UHGV virus genome: UHGV-0094371
Strand: one strand, 5' to 3'
Length of the DNA stretch: 40,507 bases
Source: a virus
The notes under the pieces: generated by a model
The model's database searches: none
Seen by the model: the letters and a program-made list of their open reading frames with translations, nothing else
What the model was told of the DNA's origin: nothing
Program-made: the position numbers and the translations under genes
In this document: positions 5,673 through 31,049 of the stretch, one piece after another
Layout: each line of letters begins with the position of its first letter
Numbering within the stretch: the first letter of the stretch is position 1

Positions 5673-8189
5673 TTACCTGCGATTGGTCGCATTCCAGATA
5701 AGCCCACCGGGCTGGATTGCCCTGGCGATACCATCGTTGACAGATTTGTTAATCACCTGCTGATACGCCTTACCCAGCCTGTCTCCGTCGTTTTGCTGCT
5801 GTGCGTTACCGGAAGCATTCTCGACCGTCACCGGGGCATATACACTGACACCGAAAGGTGCTGCAGCCGGGCCTGTACCACCGCCCCCGACATACCCACC
5901 CGTGGCATACCCTTTCATCATCCGGTAAAGATTGCCGACGCCGATCCGGCTGGTAGCCTCTTTGGTGAAAACAAATTCACCACGGTGAACGACACCTGCA
6001 GGTTCATATTTCCCGCCTGAACCGGTATAACCGCCACCTGCAAATCCCAGCGCGGTTGTCGCTGAATCCACCAGGCCTACCATCGCCTGTTTCAGCAGGA
6101 TCTGTGTCAGCATGGAGAGCGTGGAGCGGGTGAAGTCAGCCCAGTCAGCCTTTCCGCGCGTCAGCATGTCAGCCATATTTTGCCCGATGCCATCAAACGC
6201 ACTGGTGGCAGCCGACTTCATCTGGCCATAAGCATCTGAAGCAGAATCAACATAATCTGCCCATGCGGATTTGGCTCCGGACTGCCAGTCGTCCCGCAGC
6301 TTATCCTGCTCGGCGTAATACGCCTGCAGCGCCTGCAGCTCATTCTGATAACCAGCATCGTTCTCCGAACCACCACCATTTTTCCAGCCCTGAAGAAGCT
6401 GGGCCTCTTCATTGCGACGTTGTGCTGCACGACTGCTCATACCAGCACTTTCCGCAAGGGCTCGGGTTTTCTCGCCGATCTGCGTGACGTATTTTTGGGA
6501 CGTATCCTGCAGGCGATTAAGCCGCTCCTGCGCCACTATCTGATCGCCGAGCTTCGCATTCAGCTCCGCACGGGAAAGCACCTCACTTTTACTGGCCAGC
6601 AGGGATTTTTCCTCAGCAGAAAGCGTTCGGGTCTTCGCGGCCTCTTCCAGAACCGTAAAGCGGGACTGCTGACGCCACAGCTCCTGACGCTGCTGGCTGA
6701 TGGTGTCATTGATGCTCTTATGCTCCTGCAGGGTGCGCAGCTGTGTCTGTAGCTCCAGCGTCTGGGCACTGGCCGTATCGGTGGCACGGGCACCTGCGGG
6801 GGTTCTGATTGCCGGGGTCTTCTTCGGCTTTTTAAGGGTGTCTTCGTACTCTTTTTTCGCGGCAGCCAGGTTGATGTTGTAGTCAGCCTGGAGGATCCGC
6901 CCCTCTTTCAGCGCCTTGTTGAGCTCGCTCTGCCTGGCCGTGTATTTCTCAAGGGCAGTTTGGGTTTTGGCATAGTTGGCCTGAGCCTGCGCGGCATATT
7001 TCTGACGATCGGACTCTGCGACCGCTTCACGGGAAGCATTCTCTTCGTTCGCTTTGGCAATACCAGCCTGCTGCTGCGCCATATCCAGTGCCAGTCTGGC
7101 CGTTTCACGATCATTCCAGAACCGGGCGCGGGCCTCATCATTCACATAATGATCGCCTTTACGCAGATTCCAGATTTCATCAGCCTTTTTAAACGCGGCC
7201 TGGGCTTTTGCCACCATCTCCTGGGCGGTGTCAGGTCTGCCAATATCAAGTGCAGCATCCCACATCGACTTGAAGGCACGCTTCAGGGAATCCGCTGAAG
7301 ACTCAATCGTCCCCATATTGTCGCGGATGGCTTTGGTCTGATCGTTGAATCCGGCTGTAGCCGCCTCGTTAGCCGCCTGCAGTGCGCCAGCCTCATCACC
7401 GGCACGCTGCAGCTGCGCCACATGGGCAATCTGTTCTGCGGTAACGTTATGGAACTGCTGGGCCATCGCGATCAGGCCCGATGTCGGGTCAGTTGCGAGC
7501 TTGCCGTAGGCTGCAGCGACTTTCTCCACCGGCACGCCGGAGGCATCAGTAAACCGCGCCACCGCCTGGCTCATTTCATCAAAGCGCGAGCCAGTACGCA
7601 CACCTGCATTGATAAGCTCGGTCAGGGCTTCACTGGTCTGGTTGAACGTTAGCCCCGCTGCCTGTCCGTTCCGCGCCAGTGCCAGCATGCGGTCAGCTGT
7701 CAGTCCGGCTGTGTTCCCCGACAGTACCAGCGTTTTGTTGAAATCAGACAGAGTGGAAGAGCCCTGGTACCAGGCATAGAACAACGCGCCCGTTGCAACG
7801 GACAATGCACCAATGCCGACCATCAACGGGGAAATCGTCCCCAGCAACGCCCGGAATGTCGGAATGATCCCGCCAAAGGAGTCCTTAACCTGACCGCCCT
7901 GCTGAAGCAGAATCAGCCATGGGTTCTGCCCGCCCGCTAGCTGCGTAGCTATATCGGTAAACTGCGCCGGAAGCATACGCATTGCTGCGTTATACTGGCC
8001 TATTGAAATACCCGCCTTGCGCGCGGCGTTCTCCTGGCGGCTAAAGGACTGCTGGATCCGTAGCGCTTCGTCGTTCGCCGCGCTGCCAGTCTGCTTTAAT
8101 TCTTTTTTGACGTAGTTAAGCTGCTCGTTAAATTTCGTCGAGTTAACGTCAAGGTTAACGACCAGATCACCCACTGCCGTCTGGGCCAT
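5673..8189 (-). CDS. H: tail tape measure protein H
   Basis: 838 aa Ala/Gln-rich coiled-coil protein with hydrophobic segment; position after G/T. Confidence 0.9.
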   Translation of the reverse strand: MAQTAVGDLVVNLDVNSTKFNEQLNYVKKELKQTGSAANDEALRIQQSFSRQENAARKAGISIGQYNAAMRMLPAQFTDIATQLAGGQNPWLILLQQGGQVKDSFGGIIPTFRALLGTISPLMVGIGALSVATGALFYAWYQGSSTLSDFNKTLVLSGNTAGLTADRMLALARNGQAAGLTFNQTSEALTELINAGVRTGSRFDEMSQAVARFTDASGVPVEKVAAAYGKLATDPTSGLIAMAQQFHNVTAEQIAHVAQLQRAGDEAGALQAANEAATAGFNDQTKAIRDNMGTIESSADSLKRAFKSMWDAALDIGRPDTAQEMVAKAQAAFKKADEIWNLRKGDHYVNDEARARFWNDRETARLALDMAQQQAGIAKANEENASREAVAESDRQKYAAQAQANYAKTQTALEKYTARQSELNKALKEGRILQADYNINLAAAKKEYEDTLKKPKKTPAIRTPAGARATDTASAQTLELQTQLRTLQEHKSINDTISQQRQELWRQQSRFTVLEEAAKTRTLSAEEKSLLASKSEVLSRAELNAKLGDQIVAQERLNRLQDTSQKYVTQIGEKTRALAESAGMSSRAAQRRNEEAQLLQGWKNGGGSENDAGYQNELQALQAYYAEQDKLRDDWQSGAKSAWADYVDSASDAYGQMKSAATSAFDGIGQNMADMLTRGKADWADFTRSTLSMLTQILLKQAMVGLVDSATTALGFAGGGYTGSGGKYEPAGVVHRGEFVFTKEATSRIGVGNLYRMMKGYATGGYVGGGGTGPAAAPFGVSVYAPVTVENASGNAQQQNDGDRLGKAYQQVINKSVNDGIARAIQPGGLIWNATNRR

Positions 8190-11502: not shown

Positions 11503-12528
11503 TTATGCCAGTTTGACGGAGACGAATGCGTCAGGGTCTGGCAGCAGCATCAGCGGAGCTGACTGAATCATGGTGAATTCGCGCGCCGGATCCCCCGACT
11601 GCACCCAGTTTTTCGGGTAGCGTGTCGAGGCATTGATACCTTCGCGCTGGGCATCAGCATCAAGAATGCAGCCATAGGTACGCAGGCCACGAGCCTGGGT
11701 ATTCCCCAGCACCATTGTCAGGTCCGGCAGATAATTCTTTTTGACGTCGTTTTCGACGTACTGGCCGGAGTACACCACGATGGCCACATCGCCAAACATC
11801 CCCTTGTATGAAACAGCCATACCCAGGTCTTTCACGGCAGTTTCCAGCTCAGAGTTAGAACCACGACGCGTATCCAGCTTCTTCTCAACAGCCTTGAAGG
11901 AACGGAACAGCGCCCAGCCTTTCGGATCGAACACAATGATGTTGACCACACCGCTGGCGTTGAGCGCGTAGGCTTCAATGTCATCGGTCGGGTCATACGT
12001 TTCTTTGTCGCGGGTTGACCATGCAGCCGCACCGGCCTGGACAATGTTGTTACCAGCGCTGCGGCCCATATCGACTTCAACAGGCTCGAACGCTTCCCCG
12101 GTCATGGTGTATTTACCGCTGAGCACCGCCGAAACAGCCTGTTTCTCTTCGACCTGAGCAATCGCCAGCTCTTCATCCTTCATGTTCTGAAGGATAATGC
12201 GGCGACGGCGATAGACCGGGTCAGCGAGATTCTGCGGATCCTCATCCGGCAGGCGGCGGAGAGTCATCAGTGGGTTAACTTCGTGTTTCGGCTTCACATA
12301 ACCCGGCGTGAATTCAGACGTGCTGCCGCCACGGGAGCGGATCACTTTGCCGGAGACAATCGGCGAGACGTAAAGCGCCATATTGACCAGGCCAGGAATT
12401 TGCGACAGGTAAACCTTCTCTGTACTGAAGGGATAGGTTTCGCGGAAAAAGATACGCAGGAAAAGCGGATCGAATTTGAATTTCTTCTCATTGACCGCCA
12501 GCAGTTGGGCAGTGGTGTAAACGGACAT
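11503..12528 (-). CDS. E: major capsid protein E
   Basis: 341 aa; near-identical along its length to lambda E as recalled (MSxYTTAQLLA...KFKFDPLFLR...). Confidence 0.95.
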   Translation of the reverse strand: MSVYTTAQLLAVNEKKFKFDPLFLRIFFRETYPFSTEKVYLSQIPGLVNMALYVSPIVSGKVIRSRGGSTSEFTPGYVKPKHEVNPLMTLRRLPDEDPQNLADPVYRRRRIILQNMKDEELAIAQVEEKQAVSAVLSGKYTMTGEAFEPVEVDMGRSAGNNIVQAGAAAWSTRDKETYDPTDDIEAYALNASGVVNIIVFDPKGWALFRSFKAVEKKLDTRRGSNSELETAVKDLGMAVSYKGMFGDVAIVVYSGQYVENDVKKNYLPDLTMVLGNTQARGLRTYGCILDADAQREGINASTRYPKNWVQSGDPAREFTMIQSAPLMLLPDPDAFVSVKLA

Positions 12529-12541
12529 AGATTTTTCCCGT

Positions 12542-12566
12542 AAAAAAAGCCGCGCAAGCGGCTTTT
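12542..12566 (-). terminator. intergenic hairpin (GCCGC/GCGGC stem, GCAA loop) with T7 on the minus strand, between D and E
   Basis: plus aaaaaaagccgcgcaagcggctttt; looks like an intrinsic terminator in the late-operon direction. Confidence 0.5.
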
Positions 12567-12595
12567 ATGAATGATGATGGTTGTAGAAATGCGGA

Positions 12596-12928
12596 TTAAA
12601 CGATGCTGATTGCAGTACCGGCGAACGCGTTACGTTTAATGTTGTCGTCGGTGACGGCAGATGGCCAGAGGACATCTTCAATACGGAAAGAGCCAGATTT
12701 GTAATATGCCAGTTCCGCGCTGTTCTGGTCTGCGGTTACAGCCAGGATGCCCATTGCCGCGCCAGCATGAGCACCATCCCAGACGGTCAGCTTGCCAGAA
12801 GTGGCATCCAGCATGAGCGGCGTCATGGCTGGAGTGGAAGCCGTCAGTTTGCCAGGACCATAAGATCGGAAGAGCGGGTCGCTGTTACCGAGCGGCTGGT
12901 TATGTGTGAAAACTTCAGTAATTGCCAT
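12596..12928 (-). CDS. D: head decoration protein D
   Basis: 110 aa; FTHxQPxGNSDP...AMTPLMLD...[10 protein letters not shown] resembles lambda D. Confidence 0.9.
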
Positions 12929-12937
12929 GATAGCCTC

Positions 12938-14281
12938 TTAAACGGGGGTGTTTAACAAATCGTCAGCGGCATCAGAAGATGCGCTACCTGCTGGGAGTGC
13001 ACCGGGTGCTGTTTCCATCAAACGATCCAGCGCCGTATCGGTACGCGCCTGGGCACTTTGCGGTGCAGCAGCCAGAATGCGCTGTGCGCTCTCTACCGTC
13101 ATACCCGGCGTTTCGGCCAGTGCTCGCGCCTGTGACTCACGCCCTTTAGCCTCATCGCAGTTCAGGATGCCCATGATGCGGCTATTCTCTGCAGCTACTG
13201 CTGCAGTAACCTGCGCACTGACATCTACAGGGGCCGCTACGGAAGCAATGGTCGTGTCAACGGTAGTGACCTGTTCAGCTGAGGCAGTTGTCTGAGTTGC
13301 TGCCTGGTCAACTGGCTTAGTGGTCACAGCTGAAGCAGAAGGTGATGGCATAGTTCCTCCAAGGGTTGTTTTTTTGCGTCTGTCGAGTGCTTCGCGCATC
13401 ACGCCGAGCGCATCGGTATTGTTAACAAGTTCATCCGCCAGTCCGTTATCCAAAGACTCCTGGCCGGAGAATACTGCCGCTTCGGTGTCCAGCACGTCCT
13501 GAACAGACATGCCGGTATAAGCGGAAACCTTTTCGGCAAACATCTGACGAGTGGCATCGATACGCGTCTGGAAATCAGCACGCACATCTTTCGGAAGCTT
13601 TTCGTAAGGGTTGCCGTCGACCTTGCGATCGCCGCTGTAAATCAGCGTGACCTCAACGCCGTTAGTTTTGAGCGCAGCGCCATAGTTGCTGTGCGCCATC
13701 ATGACCCCAATGGAGCCGGTTCTGGCCGTTTGTGTGACCAGCCGTCGCGATGCCGAACTGGCTATAAGCTGCCCTGCACTGCAGTTCATGTCATTGGCCA
13801 GCGCCCAGATGGGTTTGATATCGCGCATACGGGCTATAATGTCGGCGCAGTCAAACGCCCCGGACACCATTCCACCCGGCGTATCCATATCCAGAAGAAT
13901 GCCGTCAACGCCGGGGTCACTGATTGCCTGCTGCAGGCGAGCAATGATCCCGTTGTAACCCGTCATGCCGGAATAAGGCTGAAGCGCACGGGTTTTACTG
14001 ACCAGCGTGCCGGAAACCGGCAAGACCGCGATACCATTTGCCACCTGATAGCTGCGTGATGGACGGGGATCCATGTCATCATCCTCACCAAACAGCGCCA
14101 GCGGTTCGGCTATTTGTCCGGCATCAAGCGTGATGCCAGAGACGGTATCTGTCAGCCGGGTGATGCCCAACTGGCCAGCCAGCGCGCAAAAGAAAACCCG
14201 CGCATAGGCGGGTTCAAGCATCAGCGGCTCATTAAAGGCCATACTGGCAATATGCGGAAGATTACGCAGCTCGTGCGCCAT
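12938..14281 (-). CDS. C: head maturation protease / scaffold C (S49 peptidase family; Nu3-like scaffold probably nested in the 3' part)
   Basis: 447 aa; position between B and D; Ala/Thr/Gln-rich C-terminal scaffold-like tail. Confidence 0.85.
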   Translation of the reverse strand: MAHELRNLPHIASMAFNEPLMLEPAYARVFFCALAGQLGITRLTDTVSGITLDAGQIAEPLALFGEDDDMDPRPSRSYQVANGIAVLPVSGTLVSKTRALQPYSGMTGYNGIIARLQQAISDPGVDGILLDMDTPGGMVSGAFDCADIIARMRDIKPIWALANDMNCSAGQLIASSASRRLVTQTARTGSIGVMMAHSNYGAALKTNGVEVTLIYSGDRKVDGNPYEKLPKDVRADFQTRIDATRQMFAEKVSAYTGMSVQDVLDTEAAVFSGQESLDNGLADELVNNTDALGVMREALDRRKKTTLGGTMPSPSASAVTTKPVDQAATQTTASAEQVTTVDTTIASVAAPVDVSAQVTAAVAAENSRIMGILNCDEAKGRESQARALAETPGMTVESAQRILAAAPQSAQARTDTALDRLMETAPGALPAGSASSDAADDLLNTPV

Positions 14282-22056: not shown

Positions 22057-23109
22057 TTATTCCCATGCCAGCTGCCTTACCTCACTTACCGTCTGGTTGA
22101 AACGTTCCTCTTCCAGTTCTACGCCGATAGCCTGGCGGCCCAGTTCAATGGCTGCTTTAACAGTTGATCCCGAGCCCATAAAGAAATCAGCTACCACATC
22201 GCCGGGCCTGCTGCTGGCGTTGATGATTTGCCGCAACATATCAGCGGGCTTTTCGCACGGGTGTTTGCCTGGATAGAACTGGACGGGTTTATGTGTCCAG
22301 ACGTCTGTATAGGGCACGGCTACTGTCACAGAGAAATGCCGCCGAAGAGATTTGTACTCTTCCAGCAGATCAAGGTATTTCCGGTTCAACGAATGCCATG
22401 TGGCCACCAGCTGGTGATGCGGTGCTTTGAGTTCAGAGGCGCGGTGCTTCTCAATGGCGATCTGAGTGAACAATTCCTGCAGCTTTTCGTAATCCTGCTC
22501 GTTTGGTAGTTGCCACTGACTGGTACCGAACCAGTGAGACGCCATATTTTTCTTTCCGGTAGCGTCAGCTATTTGCCTGGACGTGACCCCCAGTTCGGCT
22601 CGTGCATCACGAAAGTAGGTGATTAACGGAGCCATGACGTGCTGTTTGACCTCGTTGCTTTTCTCAGCAAATCCGTCGCTTTTCGGCTTATATGGCCCCT
22701 GATAATGCTCAGCGAAAAGGATGCGTTCCGTCGCGGGGAAGTAAGAGCGCAGGCTTTCTTTATTACAACCGTTCCAACGCCCTGATGGCTTCGCCCAGAT
22801 AATGTGGTTCATGACGTTGAAGCGTTCACGCATCATGATCTCAATATCGGATGCAAGTCGGTGACCTGAAAACAAATACAGGCTGCCGGCAGGCTTAAGC
22901 ACTCGCCAGAACTGGGCAAGACACATATCAAGCCAGCGAAGATAGTCGGCGTCACCGTTCCACTGATTATCCCAGCCGTTCGGCTTCACCTTAAAATAAG
23001 GCGGATCCGTAACAATAAGGTCGATGGTGTTATCTGGGAGGGTTGCGAGGTATTGCAGGCAGTCAGCGTTGATAAGCTCAACACTGTTTATATTTACAGT
23101 ATTTTTCAT
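22057..23109 (-). CDS. orphan DNA methyltransferase (beta-class N6-adenine/N4-cytosine, PF01555-like)
   Basis: 350 aa; motif IV DPPY near the N-terminus (IVTDPPYF) and motif I FxGxG near the C-terminus (DFFMGSGST); no adjacent restriction gene. Confidence 0.85.
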   Translation of the reverse strand: MKNTVNINSVELINADCLQYLATLPDNTIDLIVTDPPYFKVKPNGWDNQWNGDADYLRWLDMCLAQFWRVLKPAGSLYLFSGHRLASDIEIMMRERFNVMNHIIWAKPSGRWNGCNKESLRSYFPATERILFAEHYQGPYKPKSDGFAEKSNEVKQHVMAPLITYFRDARAELGVTSRQIADATGKKNMASHWFGTSQWQLPNEQDYEKLQELFTQIAIEKHRASELKAPHHQLVATWHSLNRKYLDLLEEYKSLRRHFSVTVAVPYTDVWTHKPVQFYPGKHPCEKPADMLRQIINASSRPGDVVADFFMGSGSTVKAAIELGRQAIGVELEEERFNQTVSEVRQLAWE

Positions 23110-26307: not shown

Positions 26308-26697
26308 TCAGGCGGCTGCACCCGCCGTTTTCTCGTACTTACTGATAGTGATCTCGACCTTCCCTTCCGGGATAACCGGCCCCCACTCCACCAGCATTCT
26401 TTTCACCTGGCTGTCGTCCACCCACACACCCGCGTGGGTCAGGGCGTCAAACAGCGCCTTGTTATAGTTGTCCAGATCGCGAAGCCGGTTATCCGGAGGA
26501 AACAACACGATCTCCACTGAAGCTGGTGCCGACGTTGGTTTCGGCAGACGACGTAACTGCTCAATGATGGCTGCACACGCTGCGCTCTGGAATTTTCGCC
26601 CCGCCGCGCTTATCAGGCTCTTACCTGCAAGCGCCCCTTTGTTGGGGTGTCGCCAGTACGTGTTCACGCTGGGCGGAAAAGGCAGTATTAGCTTCAT
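26308..26697 (-). CDS. rusA: Holliday junction resolvase RusA
   Basis: 129 aa; LPFPPSVNTYW...DLDNYNKALFDALTHAGVWVDDSQV. Confidence 0.85.
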   Translation of the reverse strand: MKLILPFPPSVNTYWRHPNKGALAGKSLISAAGRKFQSAACAAIIEQLRRLPKPTSAPASVEIVLFPPDNRLRDLDNYNKALFDALTHAGVWVDDSQVKRMLVEWGPVIPEGKVEITISKYEKTAGAAA

Positions 26698-27020
26698 ACT
26701 TTCAGGCCCCTCTCATGTAACCAGTGGGCTGCACGCAGCCTGGCGTTTGCCTCACCGGCAAGCAGTGCGCGGATAATCCCGACCGCCTCGCTGTCGTCGT
26801 CCTTCACCGCGGTATGAAGCGTGATGCCCCGGGCCACGCCACGCTTTATCGTGATGACGCCTTTTTTCTCCAGTGCGCGAAGATGCTCCACCGCTGCATT
26901 CACTGAACGGTATCCCAGCATGGTTGCCACCTCCTGATTGGTTGGCGGGAAGCCACGTTCTTTCTGATAAGAAATCAGCATATCCAGCACCTGCTGCTGG
27001 CATTGAGTTAACGTAGTCAT
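26694..27020 (-). CDS. LexA-type winged-helix DNA-binding protein lacking the S24 peptidase domain
   Basis: 108 aa from the ATG at 27020; MTTLTQCQQQVLDMLISYQKERGFPPTNQEVATMLGYRSVNAAVEHLRALEKKGVI resembles the LexA N-terminal domain as recalled; ATGA overlaps on both sides. Confidence 0.6.
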   Translation of the reverse strand: MTTLTQCQQQVLDMLISYQKERGFPPTNQEVATMLGYRSVNAAVEHLRALEKKGVITIKRGVARGITLHTAVKDDDSEAVGIIRALLAGEANARLRAAHWLHERGLKV

Positions 27021-27514
27021 TAAGCCCCCACGTAATTCCCTGACAGATACCACTCTTCACCCGATGCAGCGCGCTTGCTGCTTTTCCGTAAACACCGTTC
27101 ACGACGCGCCAGAAAATTGTTTCGTTCTGGCTGGGAGTGGCTTTCACGGAATGCCTCCATCCACACCGTTGCAGCACGACGGTATAAGCCCCTCGACTCC
27201 AGTTCTTCAGCCTGGCGGGTCAGGCACAAAATCACCCGGGGGGCGTTAGTGCCGACATAGAACTTGCGCACAGGTCTGGTTTCACAAACTGGTTGTGGTT
27301 CCGGCTCCTGCGCTCTCTCAGTCAGGCGCGAGAAATGTCTGCGTGTATCTCCTTCACAACGGTGAGCCACACGCCCACTCTGACGTAACTTGCTTGCTGA
27401 CTGCAGAACGCGCTGCCGTGAGTAACCTGCAAAAGCATCCGCAATGTCTCCGGAAGTACACCCCGGATGGGCTTCAATGAATTTCTGAACTTCATTCAAA
27501 AGACTCATGATCAC
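27020..27514 (-). CDS. putative PerC/Pch-family transcriptional regulator
   Basis: 164 aa; C-terminal LESRGLYRRAATVWMEAF...RRERCL resembles the PerC/Pch signature as recalled. Confidence 0.45.
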   Translation of the reverse strand: MIMSLLNEVQKFIEAHPGCTSGDIADAFAGYSRQRVLQSASKLRQSGRVAHRCEGDTRRHFSRLTERAQEPEPQPVCETRPVRKFYVGTNAPRVILCLTRQAEELESRGLYRRAATVWMEAFRESHSQPERNNFLARRERCLRKSSKRAASGEEWYLSGNYVGA

Positions 27515-28452
27515 CCCCTGAATCCTGCCGGGATCTGGCTGTAGTCCACGTTGTCGTAACTGGATTTGAAGTACGGATCTTCACGTTTTTCTGTGTATGT
27601 GCTGACGGACGGCGATAAGCGCAGGGAAAGCTCATCCCATTTTTCCCGCAGCTTCGACGGGCTGAGCACGTTACGGCACCAGAACGGATCGCGGCTGACG
27701 CGGCTGTACATCTCGCAGATTTGTTTGTGAGTACGACCATCCTGCACACACATCAGGCGAATTTCGTTTGCCCAGGCTGTCCAGTTCGGTTCTTTGGGAC
27801 GAACCACCTCGCCGTCACATTCGGCAGCCTGCTCGTACAGGGCGATGATTTTTTTCCAGAGCCACTGTGCGCAGGTCAAATCATCCTGCGTCCCCCACTG
27901 GCGTTTTTTAGGGCTGAATACAACCGCATCAGGATGGCGAGTTAAAAAATCCTGTTCAGCCGTCTGCGTGTCCGGTTGCGAAGCGTCCGGACGAGAAGGT
28001 TTTTTATCTGACGGATCATGTTTTGATTTTACTGACGGATCCCCGCCAGATTCTGACGGGTGAAAACCCGCTTTTTTGCCAGATTTCGACGCATCAAATT
28101 TTGACGGGTCAGATTTTGATGCGTCAGATTTTGACGGGTCAGAATCTGACAGTTGAGAAAATGCCGCTGCCTGAAGCTTCGCAACGTTAAGCTGATAAAC
28201 ATTCGACGCATTGCGGTTACCCTGGCGACGCGCCTTACGCGTTAACCAGCCTTCTGCTTCCAGCCGTGCGATAGCCGTTCTGACGGTACTCATCCCCGCG
28301 CCAATCTGGCGGGCAATGGTTTCAATTGATGGCCAGCACACACCTTCGTCATTACTGAAATCAGCCAGGCGGGCCATAATTGCCACGCTGGATAATTTCA
28401 TGCCTGACGCTGCGCAACCATCCCATACATAGCCGGTTAATTTAGTGCTCAT
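27511..28452 (-). CDS. replication initiator (lambda O-like); N-terminal HTH, repeat linker, C-terminal domain
   Basis: 313 aa; lambda O position after cro/CII-like; iteron array inside the gene; SKSD peptide repeats. Confidence 0.65.
   Translation of the reverse strand: MSTKLTGYVWDGCAASGMKLSSVAIMARLADFSNDEGVCWPSIETIARQIGAGMSTVRTAIARLEAEGWLTRKARRQGNRNASNVYQLNVAKLQAAAFSQLSDSDPSKSDASKSDPSKFDASKSGKKAGFHPSESGGDPSVKSKHDPSDKKPSRPDASQPDTQTAEQDFLTRHPDAVVFSPKKRQWGTQDDLTCAQWLWKKIIALYEQAAECDGEVVRPKEPNWTAWANEIRLMCVQDGRTHKQICEMYSRVSRDPFWCRNVLSPSKLREKWDELSLRLSPSVSTYTEKREDPYFKSSYDNVDYSQIPAGFRG
28006..28155 (-). repeat. ori-like iteron array: about 8 imperfect direct repeats of (A)GATTTTGACGGGTC, the last five spaced exactly 15 bp apart
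   Basis: repeat units at 28006, 28030, 28050, 28084, 28099, 28114, 28129 and 28144. Confidence 0.65.
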
Positions 28453-29698: not shown

Positions 29699-30391
29699 AT
29701 GAACATAGGAAAACGAGTCAGACAACTTCGCCAAGCGAAGAACATGAAAATCGCCGATCTCGCTGAAGCAATAGGAGTAGATGCGGCGAACATCTCGCGC
29801 TTAGAAACGGGTAAGCAGAAACAATTTACCGAACAAACACTGAGTAATATTGCCAAGAGCTTAGGTGTTGATATTGCTGATCTCTTTACCTCTGCCCTCA
29901 AAAGTAATACTGTATATAAAAACAGTAATGATGAGGATGTTGCGCAGGTGAAGGATGTGTTCCGTATTGAAATGTTGGATATCAGTGCCAGTGCGGGAAA
30001 TGGCCTTATCCAGGGCGGTGATGTCATTGATGTGATTCATGCCATCGAATACAGAACTGATAATGCTGTATCAATGTTCGGCGGACGACCAGCCAATCAC
30101 ATCAAAGTTATCAACGTTCGTGGGGACAGTATGTGTCCAACCATTGAGCCAGGAGATCTCATCTTCGTTGATGTCAGCATCAATCAGTTTGATGGTGATG
30201 GTATATATGTCTTTGGTTTTGATGACAAAATATACGTTAAAAGACTTCAAATGATTCCTGACAAACTGCTGGTGATTTCTGATAACCAGATTTACCGTGA
30301 ATGGGGAATTACTAGCGAAAACGAACACCGATTCATGGTCTTTGGAAAGGTCTTAATCAGTCAGTCGCAAACCCTTAAGAGACATAATTAA
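29699..30391 (+). CDS. cI: CI-type prophage repressor (N-terminal HTH plus C-terminal S24 LexA-like peptidase)
   Basis: 230 aa; HTH IADLAEAIGVDAANISRLE; S24 motifs RGDSMCPTIEPGDL and YVKRL. Confidence 0.9.
   Translation: MNIGKRVRQLRQAKNMKIADLAEAIGVDAANISRLETGKQKQFTEQTLSNIAKSLGVDIADLFTSALKSNTVYKNSNDEDVAQVKDVFRIEMLDISASAGNGLIQGGDVIDVIHAIEYRTDNAVSMFGGRPANHIKVINVRGDSMCPTIEPGDLIFVDVSINQFDGDGIYVFGFDDKIYVKRLQMIPDKLLVISDNQIYREWGITSENEHRFMVFGKVLISQSQTLKRHN
29908..29927. promoter_or_regulatory. near-consensus LexA (SOS) box TACTGTATATAAAAACAGTA inside the cI coding sequence
   Basis: CTGT-N8-ACAG with flanking TA/TA; 2 mismatches to TACTGTATATATATACAGTA, both in the AT spacer. Confidence 0.5.
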
Positions 30392-30683: not shown

Positions 30684-31049
30684 ATGAATCATTTATTCAC
30701 ATGCTCATTTTGCGGAGCAACCGAACTGGGAGCGATAAAGATCGTCGCAAAAGGTGGTAAGGACGAACCTGCCATCTGTTCGGAATGCGTAGTCACATGT
30801 GTAGAAAAAATGATCCTGACTAAAAAATCAGAGGCTGAAAAACCAACCTCTGATAACGAAATAATATCAGTCGATAAAAAACTATTTAAAGAGCTTCTTC
30901 AGCTTGTCCTCAACCATCCTGATTTCGGAAGTAAGCTGGCTGCTGTTGACATTGATAGTAGCTCCACATCGACAAGTGAAACTTTTGTTCGACTTGAGCC
31001 AAGCGATTTTCTTCTTCGTCTTAGTGCCGCACTTAGGGCATGCGGGTAA
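30684..31049 (+). CDS. stand-alone ClpX-type C4 zinc-finger (ZBD-like) protein
   Basis: 121 aa from the ATG at 30684 (GAGG RBS 6 nt upstream); CSFCG-x20-CSEC resembles the ClpX N-terminal zinc-binding domain as recalled. Confidence 0.55.
   Translation: MNHLFTCSFCGATELGAIKIVAKGGKDEPAICSECVVTCVEKMILTKKSEAEKPTSDNEIISVDKKLFKELLQLVLNHPDFGSKLAAVDIDSSSTSTSETFVRLEPSDFLLRLSAALRACG

Follow-up and report, generated by a model that had tools for sequence, protein, structure and literature searches.

In E. coli LexA, the recognition-helix residues that take part in DNA binding are S39, N41, A42, E44 and E45, according to the summary given in PMC13416735 (citing Knegtel 1995). The DNA-binding domain of this repressor is not sufficient for repression on its own: as related in PMC7160566 (after Dmitrova 1998), sulA-lacZ is repressed when the LexA domain is fused to a dimerising partner but not when the domain is supplied unfused, a principle that underlies the LexA-based dimerisation assay. 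On the phage side, the closest characterised analogue of the protein considered here is gp6 of the Bacillus tectivirus GIL01, a truncated homologue of LexA; it recognises a palindrome of its own and switches on the late promoter P3 (PMC6182141). It is the only characterised phage truncated-LexA homologue that we found, and with GIL01 the idea that a phage may encode a truncated version of LexA has already been published. A parallel of another sort is provided by NinH of lambda, which mimics Fis and whose gene neighbours that of the Rap resolvase (PMC7166090). No functional study of the enterobacterial family of 108-aa LexA-like proteins described below was found in the literature.

The window, that is, the whole stretch of 40,507 nt analysed here (virus genome UHGV-0094371), is a lambdoid prophage with tail genes at its left end and host flank (DUF2713) at its right end. 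The LexA-like gene is a real ORF of the minus strand at 26694-27020, exactly where the original prediction had placed it, with an ATG at 27020-27018, a TGA stop at 26696-26694 and a 108-aa product. The mechanical ORF start is a GTG at 27053, which would give 119 aa; translation from the ATG at 27020 yields the 108-aa form, whose N-terminus agrees with that of LexA and of every family member, and a Shine-Dalgarno-like GGGGG run lies 5-9 nt 5' of this ATG. A close relative of the prophage is present in E. coli O19:H7 730V1 beside a remnant of dusA, which encodes tRNA-dihydrouridine synthase. In this strain, the outermost prophage gene is found ~5 kb from the host lexA-dinF operon (L001 3658-4266 compared with the prophage), a proximity that probably reflects chance in where the phage integrated.

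The amino-terminal part of the protein (residues 1-68; 26817..27020, minus strand) is a LexA-type winged helix-turn-helix. Residues 1-65 cover the complete Pfam profile LexA_DNA_bind (PF01726, positions 1-65 of 65) with an E-value of 2.9e-19 and a score of 69 bits against a cut-off of 23.7, the comparison that had been proposed as a check on the resemblance to the LexA N-terminal winged helix. The structural comparisons lead to the same result. The closest solved structures retrieved by a sequence search of the PDB are those of E. coli LexA (E=6e-16), and the AF2 model of the phage protein (pLDDT 84) superimposes in Foldseek on LexA in the LexA-DNA complex 3JSO with an rmsd of 1.0 Å over 68 residues at 50% identity; both share the winged-helix fold. 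The resemblance originally claimed is therefore well founded. In the model, the winged helix is composed of helices at residues 6-22, 28-35 and 40-52 and of wing strands at 56-58 and 66-68. Alignments to E. coli LexA identify the helix at residues 40-52, VNAAVEHLRALEK (26865..26903, minus strand), as the recognition helix. Four of the five DNA-binding residues listed for LexA in the summary cited above are kept in the alignment (S39, N41, A42 and E45), and the fifth, E44, is replaced by V; the wing residues R64 and G65 of LexA are also kept. Across the family, L4, Q8, V11, P25, P26, E30, S39, L50, K53, I56, R64, G65 and I66 are invariant, R7 and T27 are found in 11 of 12 lineages, and most of the invariant positions are also present in LexA.

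None of this makes the gene a new kind of system. Its recognition as LexA-like was correct, but the databases already label it alike, and it is widely annotated: residues 1-108 align with positions 1-106 of 106 of PHROG 362 ('transcriptional repressor', E=4.2e-59), and the RefSeq name of the identical protein is 'LexA family transcriptional regulator'. The partial retention of LexA's reading residues is new here, in a modest way.

What separates the phage protein from E. coli LexA is in the first place the loss of the S24 peptidase/dimerisation domain. In Pfam, the 108-aa protein has no match to Peptidase_S24 (PF00717), whereas the cI of the same window does match. Against TIGR00498, the full-length LexA equivalog, only profile positions 1-91 of 203 are aligned, and the score of 70.7 falls below the cut-off of 110.95. 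The autocleavage domain is thus missing, as had been claimed. The Ser/Lys dyad was likewise expected to be absent and is indeed so, as the protein ends at residue 108 and has no counterpart of Ser119 and Lys156. Having no S24 domain, the protein cannot cleave itself on RecA*.

The original prediction also held that the protein ends where the S24 domain would begin. This is right as far as the missing S24 is concerned, but the protein is not a bare truncation, since residues 76-108 (26697..26795, minus strand) make up a conserved helical hairpin of their own, modelled by AF2 with a pLDDT of ~90. The hairpin is separated from the head by a variable linker (residues 69-75; 26796..26816, minus strand), in which the model is of low confidence, with pLDDT below 50 at residues 71-75, and which shows the highest column entropy in the family. 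Within the tail, helices 75-88 and 93-103 are confidently predicted, and the conservation extends across 12 lineages, down to 40% identity, with A97 and L101 invariant and a hydrophobic stripe at positions 79/80, 82, 83, 86, 87, 93, 97, 100 and 101. No significant match to the tail was found in Pfam or the PDB, and the Foldseek matches were confined to the winged helix; the two-helix tail, without known homologue, is thus a further difference from LexA, together with the E44 to V replacement. Because a two-helix hairpin this small cannot bury its hydrophobic face alone, the tail is probably a dimerisation module. The phage protein would then resemble the constructs of the LexA fusion assays (PMC7160566), which likewise join a LexA head to a heterologous module; these constructs are artificial and carry the authentic LexA domain, whereas the phage head is only 50% identical to it. 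The conserved helical tail is the second aspect of the 108-aa family that is, modestly, new here. As a side observation, a representative library built from public genomes and metagenomes contains three proteins (P0131, P0133 and P0156) with tandem LexA DNA-binding domains in 141-222 aa, which would be single-chain pseudo-dimers without S24.

The tail also contains the motif LLAGE (residues 86-90; 26751..26765, minus strand), which HMMER aligns with A84-G85-E86 of LexA, so the Ala-Gly site is not absent from the sequence as had been predicted. A role as a working cleavage site nevertheless appears unlikely. In diverged members AG is replaced by ER, TR, DD, CS, DT, CN, EL or EE, and some close relatives already have AN or VG in its place; moreover, the motif is located at the end of a confidently predicted AF2 helix and not in a strand-loop-strand. 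For these reasons LLAGE is read as vestigial, probably a relic of descent from lexA. Intermolecular cleavage of LexA fragments in vitro was reportedly observed by Kim and Little in 1993, and, in combination with the alignment to A84-G85-E86, it would be conceivable that the protein serves as a decoy or substrate in LexA cleavage, either being cut at LLAGE in trans by host S24 proteins or titrating them. The replacement of AG in diverged members and in some close relatives, and the helical position of the motif, make this a very remote prospect.

The reading that we prefer, and that we put forward tentatively as a good possibility, is that of an uncleavable mini-LexA, probably dimeric, which is made in lytic growth and occupies SOS-type operators after cleavage of the host LexA. 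It would be a small regulator that binds DNA and is immune to inactivation by RecA*, built from the LexA-type winged helix (1-68), the flexible linker and a two-helix hairpin (76-108) that would stand in for the S24 dimerisation/cleavage domain. Translation would take place within the delayed-early (nin) operon, mainly in lytic growth, be it after infection or after induction. The hairpin would pair two chains, allowing two LexA-like heads to bind palindromic CTGT...ACAG (SOS-type) operators, and the uncleavable protein would occupy such sites once host LexA is destroyed. The candidate sites would be those of the host SOS regulon plus two prophage boxes, one in cI and one at the start of a methylase gene (see below). 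Binding of the 108-aa protein to CTGT-type SOS boxes appears plausible because four of the five recognition-helix residues listed for LexA are kept.

The comparison with GIL01 gp6 brings in a second reading. Both proteins are phage-encoded LexA DNA-binding domains without the cleavage domain, and both belong to an early operon. On the other hand, gp6 has only 66 aa and no helical tail, and it carries a changed recognition residue, K38, whereas the protein described here seems, from the alignment, to keep LexA's reading residues. BLASTP yields no alignment between the two, which have only their match to PF01726 in common, and because no pairwise similarity is detectable they are considered to derive independently from the LexA proteins of different hosts. 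Since gp6 binds its own palindrome and activates P3, there is a precedent for a phage-specific regulator with its own drifted operator, which would time phage genes as an activator or a repressor and leave the host SOS regulon untouched. The variability of the recognition helix is in line with such a role: E45 is lost in 5 of 12 family lineages, positions 44-45 are among the more variable of the helix, and a Citrobacter member (66% identical) differs in this helix only at 42-45 (SVNTIAGH). Taken together, the members are thus not tied to recognition of the host SOS box. Furthermore, many unrelated phages also encode stand-alone short LexA DNA-binding domains, which fits a private regulator as well. 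The protein of the window, for its part, has four of the five DNA-binding residues listed for LexA unchanged, which argues against a drifted operator, and we regard this second reading as somewhat unlikely. If it were correct, this would be the second independently evolved phage conversion of a captured LexA head into a private regulator, after GIL01 gp6.

The genomic context bears on both the timing and the partners of the protein. Along the direction of transcription (minus strand of the window), the order of genes is cro, ymfL-like, DUF4222, an O-like replication gene, a PerC-family gene, the LexA-like gene, rusA, KilA-N, DUF968 and the Q antiterminator, followed after Q by a small ORF, an N6/N4 DNA methylase and the lysis genes; the LexA-like gene is thus located in the rightward delayed-early (nin) region. 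Upstream, the stop of the PerC-family gene (164 aa; 27020..27514, minus strand; Pfam PerC) overlaps the LexA-like start by 1 nt (TAATG), and downstream the ATG of rusA, encoding a Holliday-junction resolvase (26308..26697, minus strand; Pfam RusA), overlaps the LexA-like stop by 4 nt (ATGA). No consensus promoter was found directly upstream of the LexA-like gene, which is overlapped by both flanking genes. From its position in the delayed-early operon, the start/stop overlaps and the lack of a consensus promoter directly upstream, expression of the gene is expected to coincide with that of the early lytic genes and not to occur while the lysogen is at rest, which would be a further difference from LexA, whose gene has its own SOS-regulated promoter. 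The same arrangement weighs against a phage-specific regulator with a private operator, since there is neither an intergenic region nor a dedicated promoter that would point to autoregulation. As for the PerC-family protein itself, its PerC domain spans residues 100-151, and residues 3-105 match phrog_23071, of unknown function.

The neighbour on the upstream side varies between phages, being PerC, Dam, a C5 methylase or a replication protein. The downstream neighbour does not: rusA is found directly downstream in 8 of 8 diverged tail-bearing lineages that were placed on contigs (40-66% identity; the window's own clade is excluded from these, and mEp390 is among them). The overlap between both genes is 4 nt in most of the eight, and in one of them a reverse-oriented gene is inserted between the LexA-like gene and rusA. 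This constant pairing with rusA is the third modest novelty. It could mean that the protein is a RusA-coupled accessory of DNA metabolism, which by analogy with lambda NinH might shape DNA for recombination or replication restart, or might modulate RusA. NinH and the 108-aa protein are indeed both small nin-region copies of the DNA-binding module of a global host regulator, adjacent to a Holliday-junction resolvase gene, and NinH therefore offers a precedent (PMC7166090). The likeness is one of analogy only, as a Fis-type HTH differs from a LexA winged helix, Rap differs from RusA, and the gene order is not the same. The synteny, moreover, may simply reflect a jointly inherited module, and rusA also occurs without this gene as its neighbour: in the Edwardsiella phage EPP-1, the LexA-like gene has no tail and is found at a distance of one gene from rusA. 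The RusA of characterised systems is known to act by itself, which speaks against an accessory, and the protein has conserved the residues with which a sequence-specific repressor reads the bases, something that an architectural role would not require. We thus hold a RusA-coupled function to be improbable. One prophage with a diverged LexA-like/rusA pair (L019) encodes, in its late region, a Cas1-domain protein beside an AcrVA2-like one (11794-13390), and the same prophage has a strong intergenic SOS box at 7561, located 5' of a small ORF which is itself followed by the LexA-like gene. A search for a defence-system role with PADLOC returned only a weak, irrelevant match.

Returning to the preferred reading, in which the mini-LexA would occupy SOS-type operators, the window itself contains such sites. 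When CTGT-Nx-ACAG arrangements with spacings from 0 to 20 were counted in the window, N8 was the most frequent, with 3 observed against 0.44-0.49 expected, and none of the other spacings had more than 2 matches; two of the three N8 boxes match the 20-mer consensus at 18 and 17 of 20 positions. The original prediction had reported a near-perfect SOS box inside cI, and it is found at 29908-29927 (TACTGTATATAAAAACAGTA, 18/20 consensus positions). The cI gene (29699-30391, plus strand) encodes an HTH_3 and an S24 domain, and the box occupies the linker codons, approximately 70-77, between the two. The cI-type repressor genes of mEp460 and of a metagenomic contig (L013) have the box at the corresponding position; as a candidate operator it could serve host LexA and perhaps the phage protein too. 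A LexA operator inside a repressor gene may act as a roadblock, or may belong to an internal or antisense promoter.

The second strong box lies at 23082..23101 (minus strand TACTGTAAATATAAACAGTG). It covers codons 3-9 of a gene for an N6/N4 DNA methyltransferase in the late region (22057-23109, minus strand), downstream of Q. The codon choices that create this box (ACT-GTx...AAC-AGT) have been retained by the homologues from Hafnia, Morganella and phiKO2, at ~71% nucleotide identity, as well as by those of SfV and mEp460, and they are lost in phiP27 and Stx2a phages, which suggests that the methylase is LexA-controlled in some phages. A specific co-occurrence of phage SOS boxes with the LexA-like gene was considered and rejected, as boxes are missing near several carriers and the modules are separable. 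Thus, prophages L009-L012, L014-L016 and L020 carry the gene and have no consensus-like CTGT-N8-ACAG box within 8-10 kb, the one match in L020 being a poor one (8/20). In the phage database, the methylase and LexA-like modules separate freely and both box modules also occur without the gene; no Morganella record is found among the phage matches to the LexA-like protein, though a Morganella phage has the methylase box. Because of this free separation, and of the lack of a Morganella match, the two boxes are most simply read as host-LexA operators in their own right, and as candidate sites for the phage protein.

These data also touch on the possibility of a regulator with its own operator. The gene-carrying prophages that have no SOS box nearby fit it well. 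In the window, however, no other conserved palindrome was found in the early/late regulatory region, where the single strong inverted repeat is of the origin type and lies within the O-like gene. A dedicated palindrome of the gp6 type was not found in the late region either, in which the sole strong box is the canonical SOS box of the methylase gene. The repeat in the O-like gene (27511-28452, minus strand) is an 18-nt inverted repeat, 89% complementary, at 28088-28125, and the gene also encodes repeated SDPSK/SDASK peptide units; these repeats are probably origin iterons.

A more far-reaching version of SOS-site binding, which we consider distinctly doubtful, would be that the mini-LexA, made as the prophage turns to lytic growth in the many E. 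coli strains that carry it, re-closes the SOS operators opened by RecA*. It would shut recA, sulA, umuDC, colicin lysis genes and LexA-controlled rival prophages, and could lock the switch toward lysis via the cI box; the pairing with rusA would then reflect a coordinated takeover of the host damage response.

The LexA-like gene is widespread. It is present at >=95% identity, that is, at least 95%, in 2233 of 5426 complete E. coli genomes (41%), and 61 phage records match the protein, including SfV (orf42), SfII, SfIV, cdtI and mEp460. Member length is 104-135 aa in all diverged lineages but one. This distribution is relevant to the simplest alternative, namely that the gene is a functionless, decaying remnant of a captured lexA. 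A pN/pS of only 0.3-0.5 between close copies might be cited in its favour, with the qualification that the copies show very few differences, too few to be informative. Against it stand the maintained length, a tail kept down to 40% identity among Enterobacterales prophages, the presence of the gene in 41% of complete E. coli genomes, and the preservation of the start/stop overlaps with the flanking genes. By reason of this conservation the remnant is effectively refuted, and we assign it a negligible probability.

If SOS boxes are bound, as the preferred reading of an uncleavable mini-LexA would have it, the prophages of about two fifths of E. coli strains would encode an SOS repressor that stays in place despite DNA damage. 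In that case, the duration of SOS mutagenesis, filamentation, colicin release and the induction of co-resident prophages after antibiotic or oxidative stress would be affected. The output of Shiga toxin might also change, a possibility raised because 15 of 15 Stx2c-converting phage records match the LexA-like protein. Among records named 'Stx2-converting', only three do so, and the differing inducibility of Stx2c and Stx2a phages may be linked to the LexA-like gene.

A last observation concerns the ORF located just 3' of cI (30684-31049, plus strand). Its N-terminus resembles the C4 zinc-finger domain of ClpX alone, with 26.2 bits, just below the Pfam cut-off of 27, and RefSeq names a shorter ORF at the same position in 730V1 'ClpX C4-type zinc finger protein'. 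LexA fragments are degraded by ClpXP, and the presence in the same prophage of a putative mimic of the ClpX N-domain and of a LexA-like gene is intriguing in this regard.
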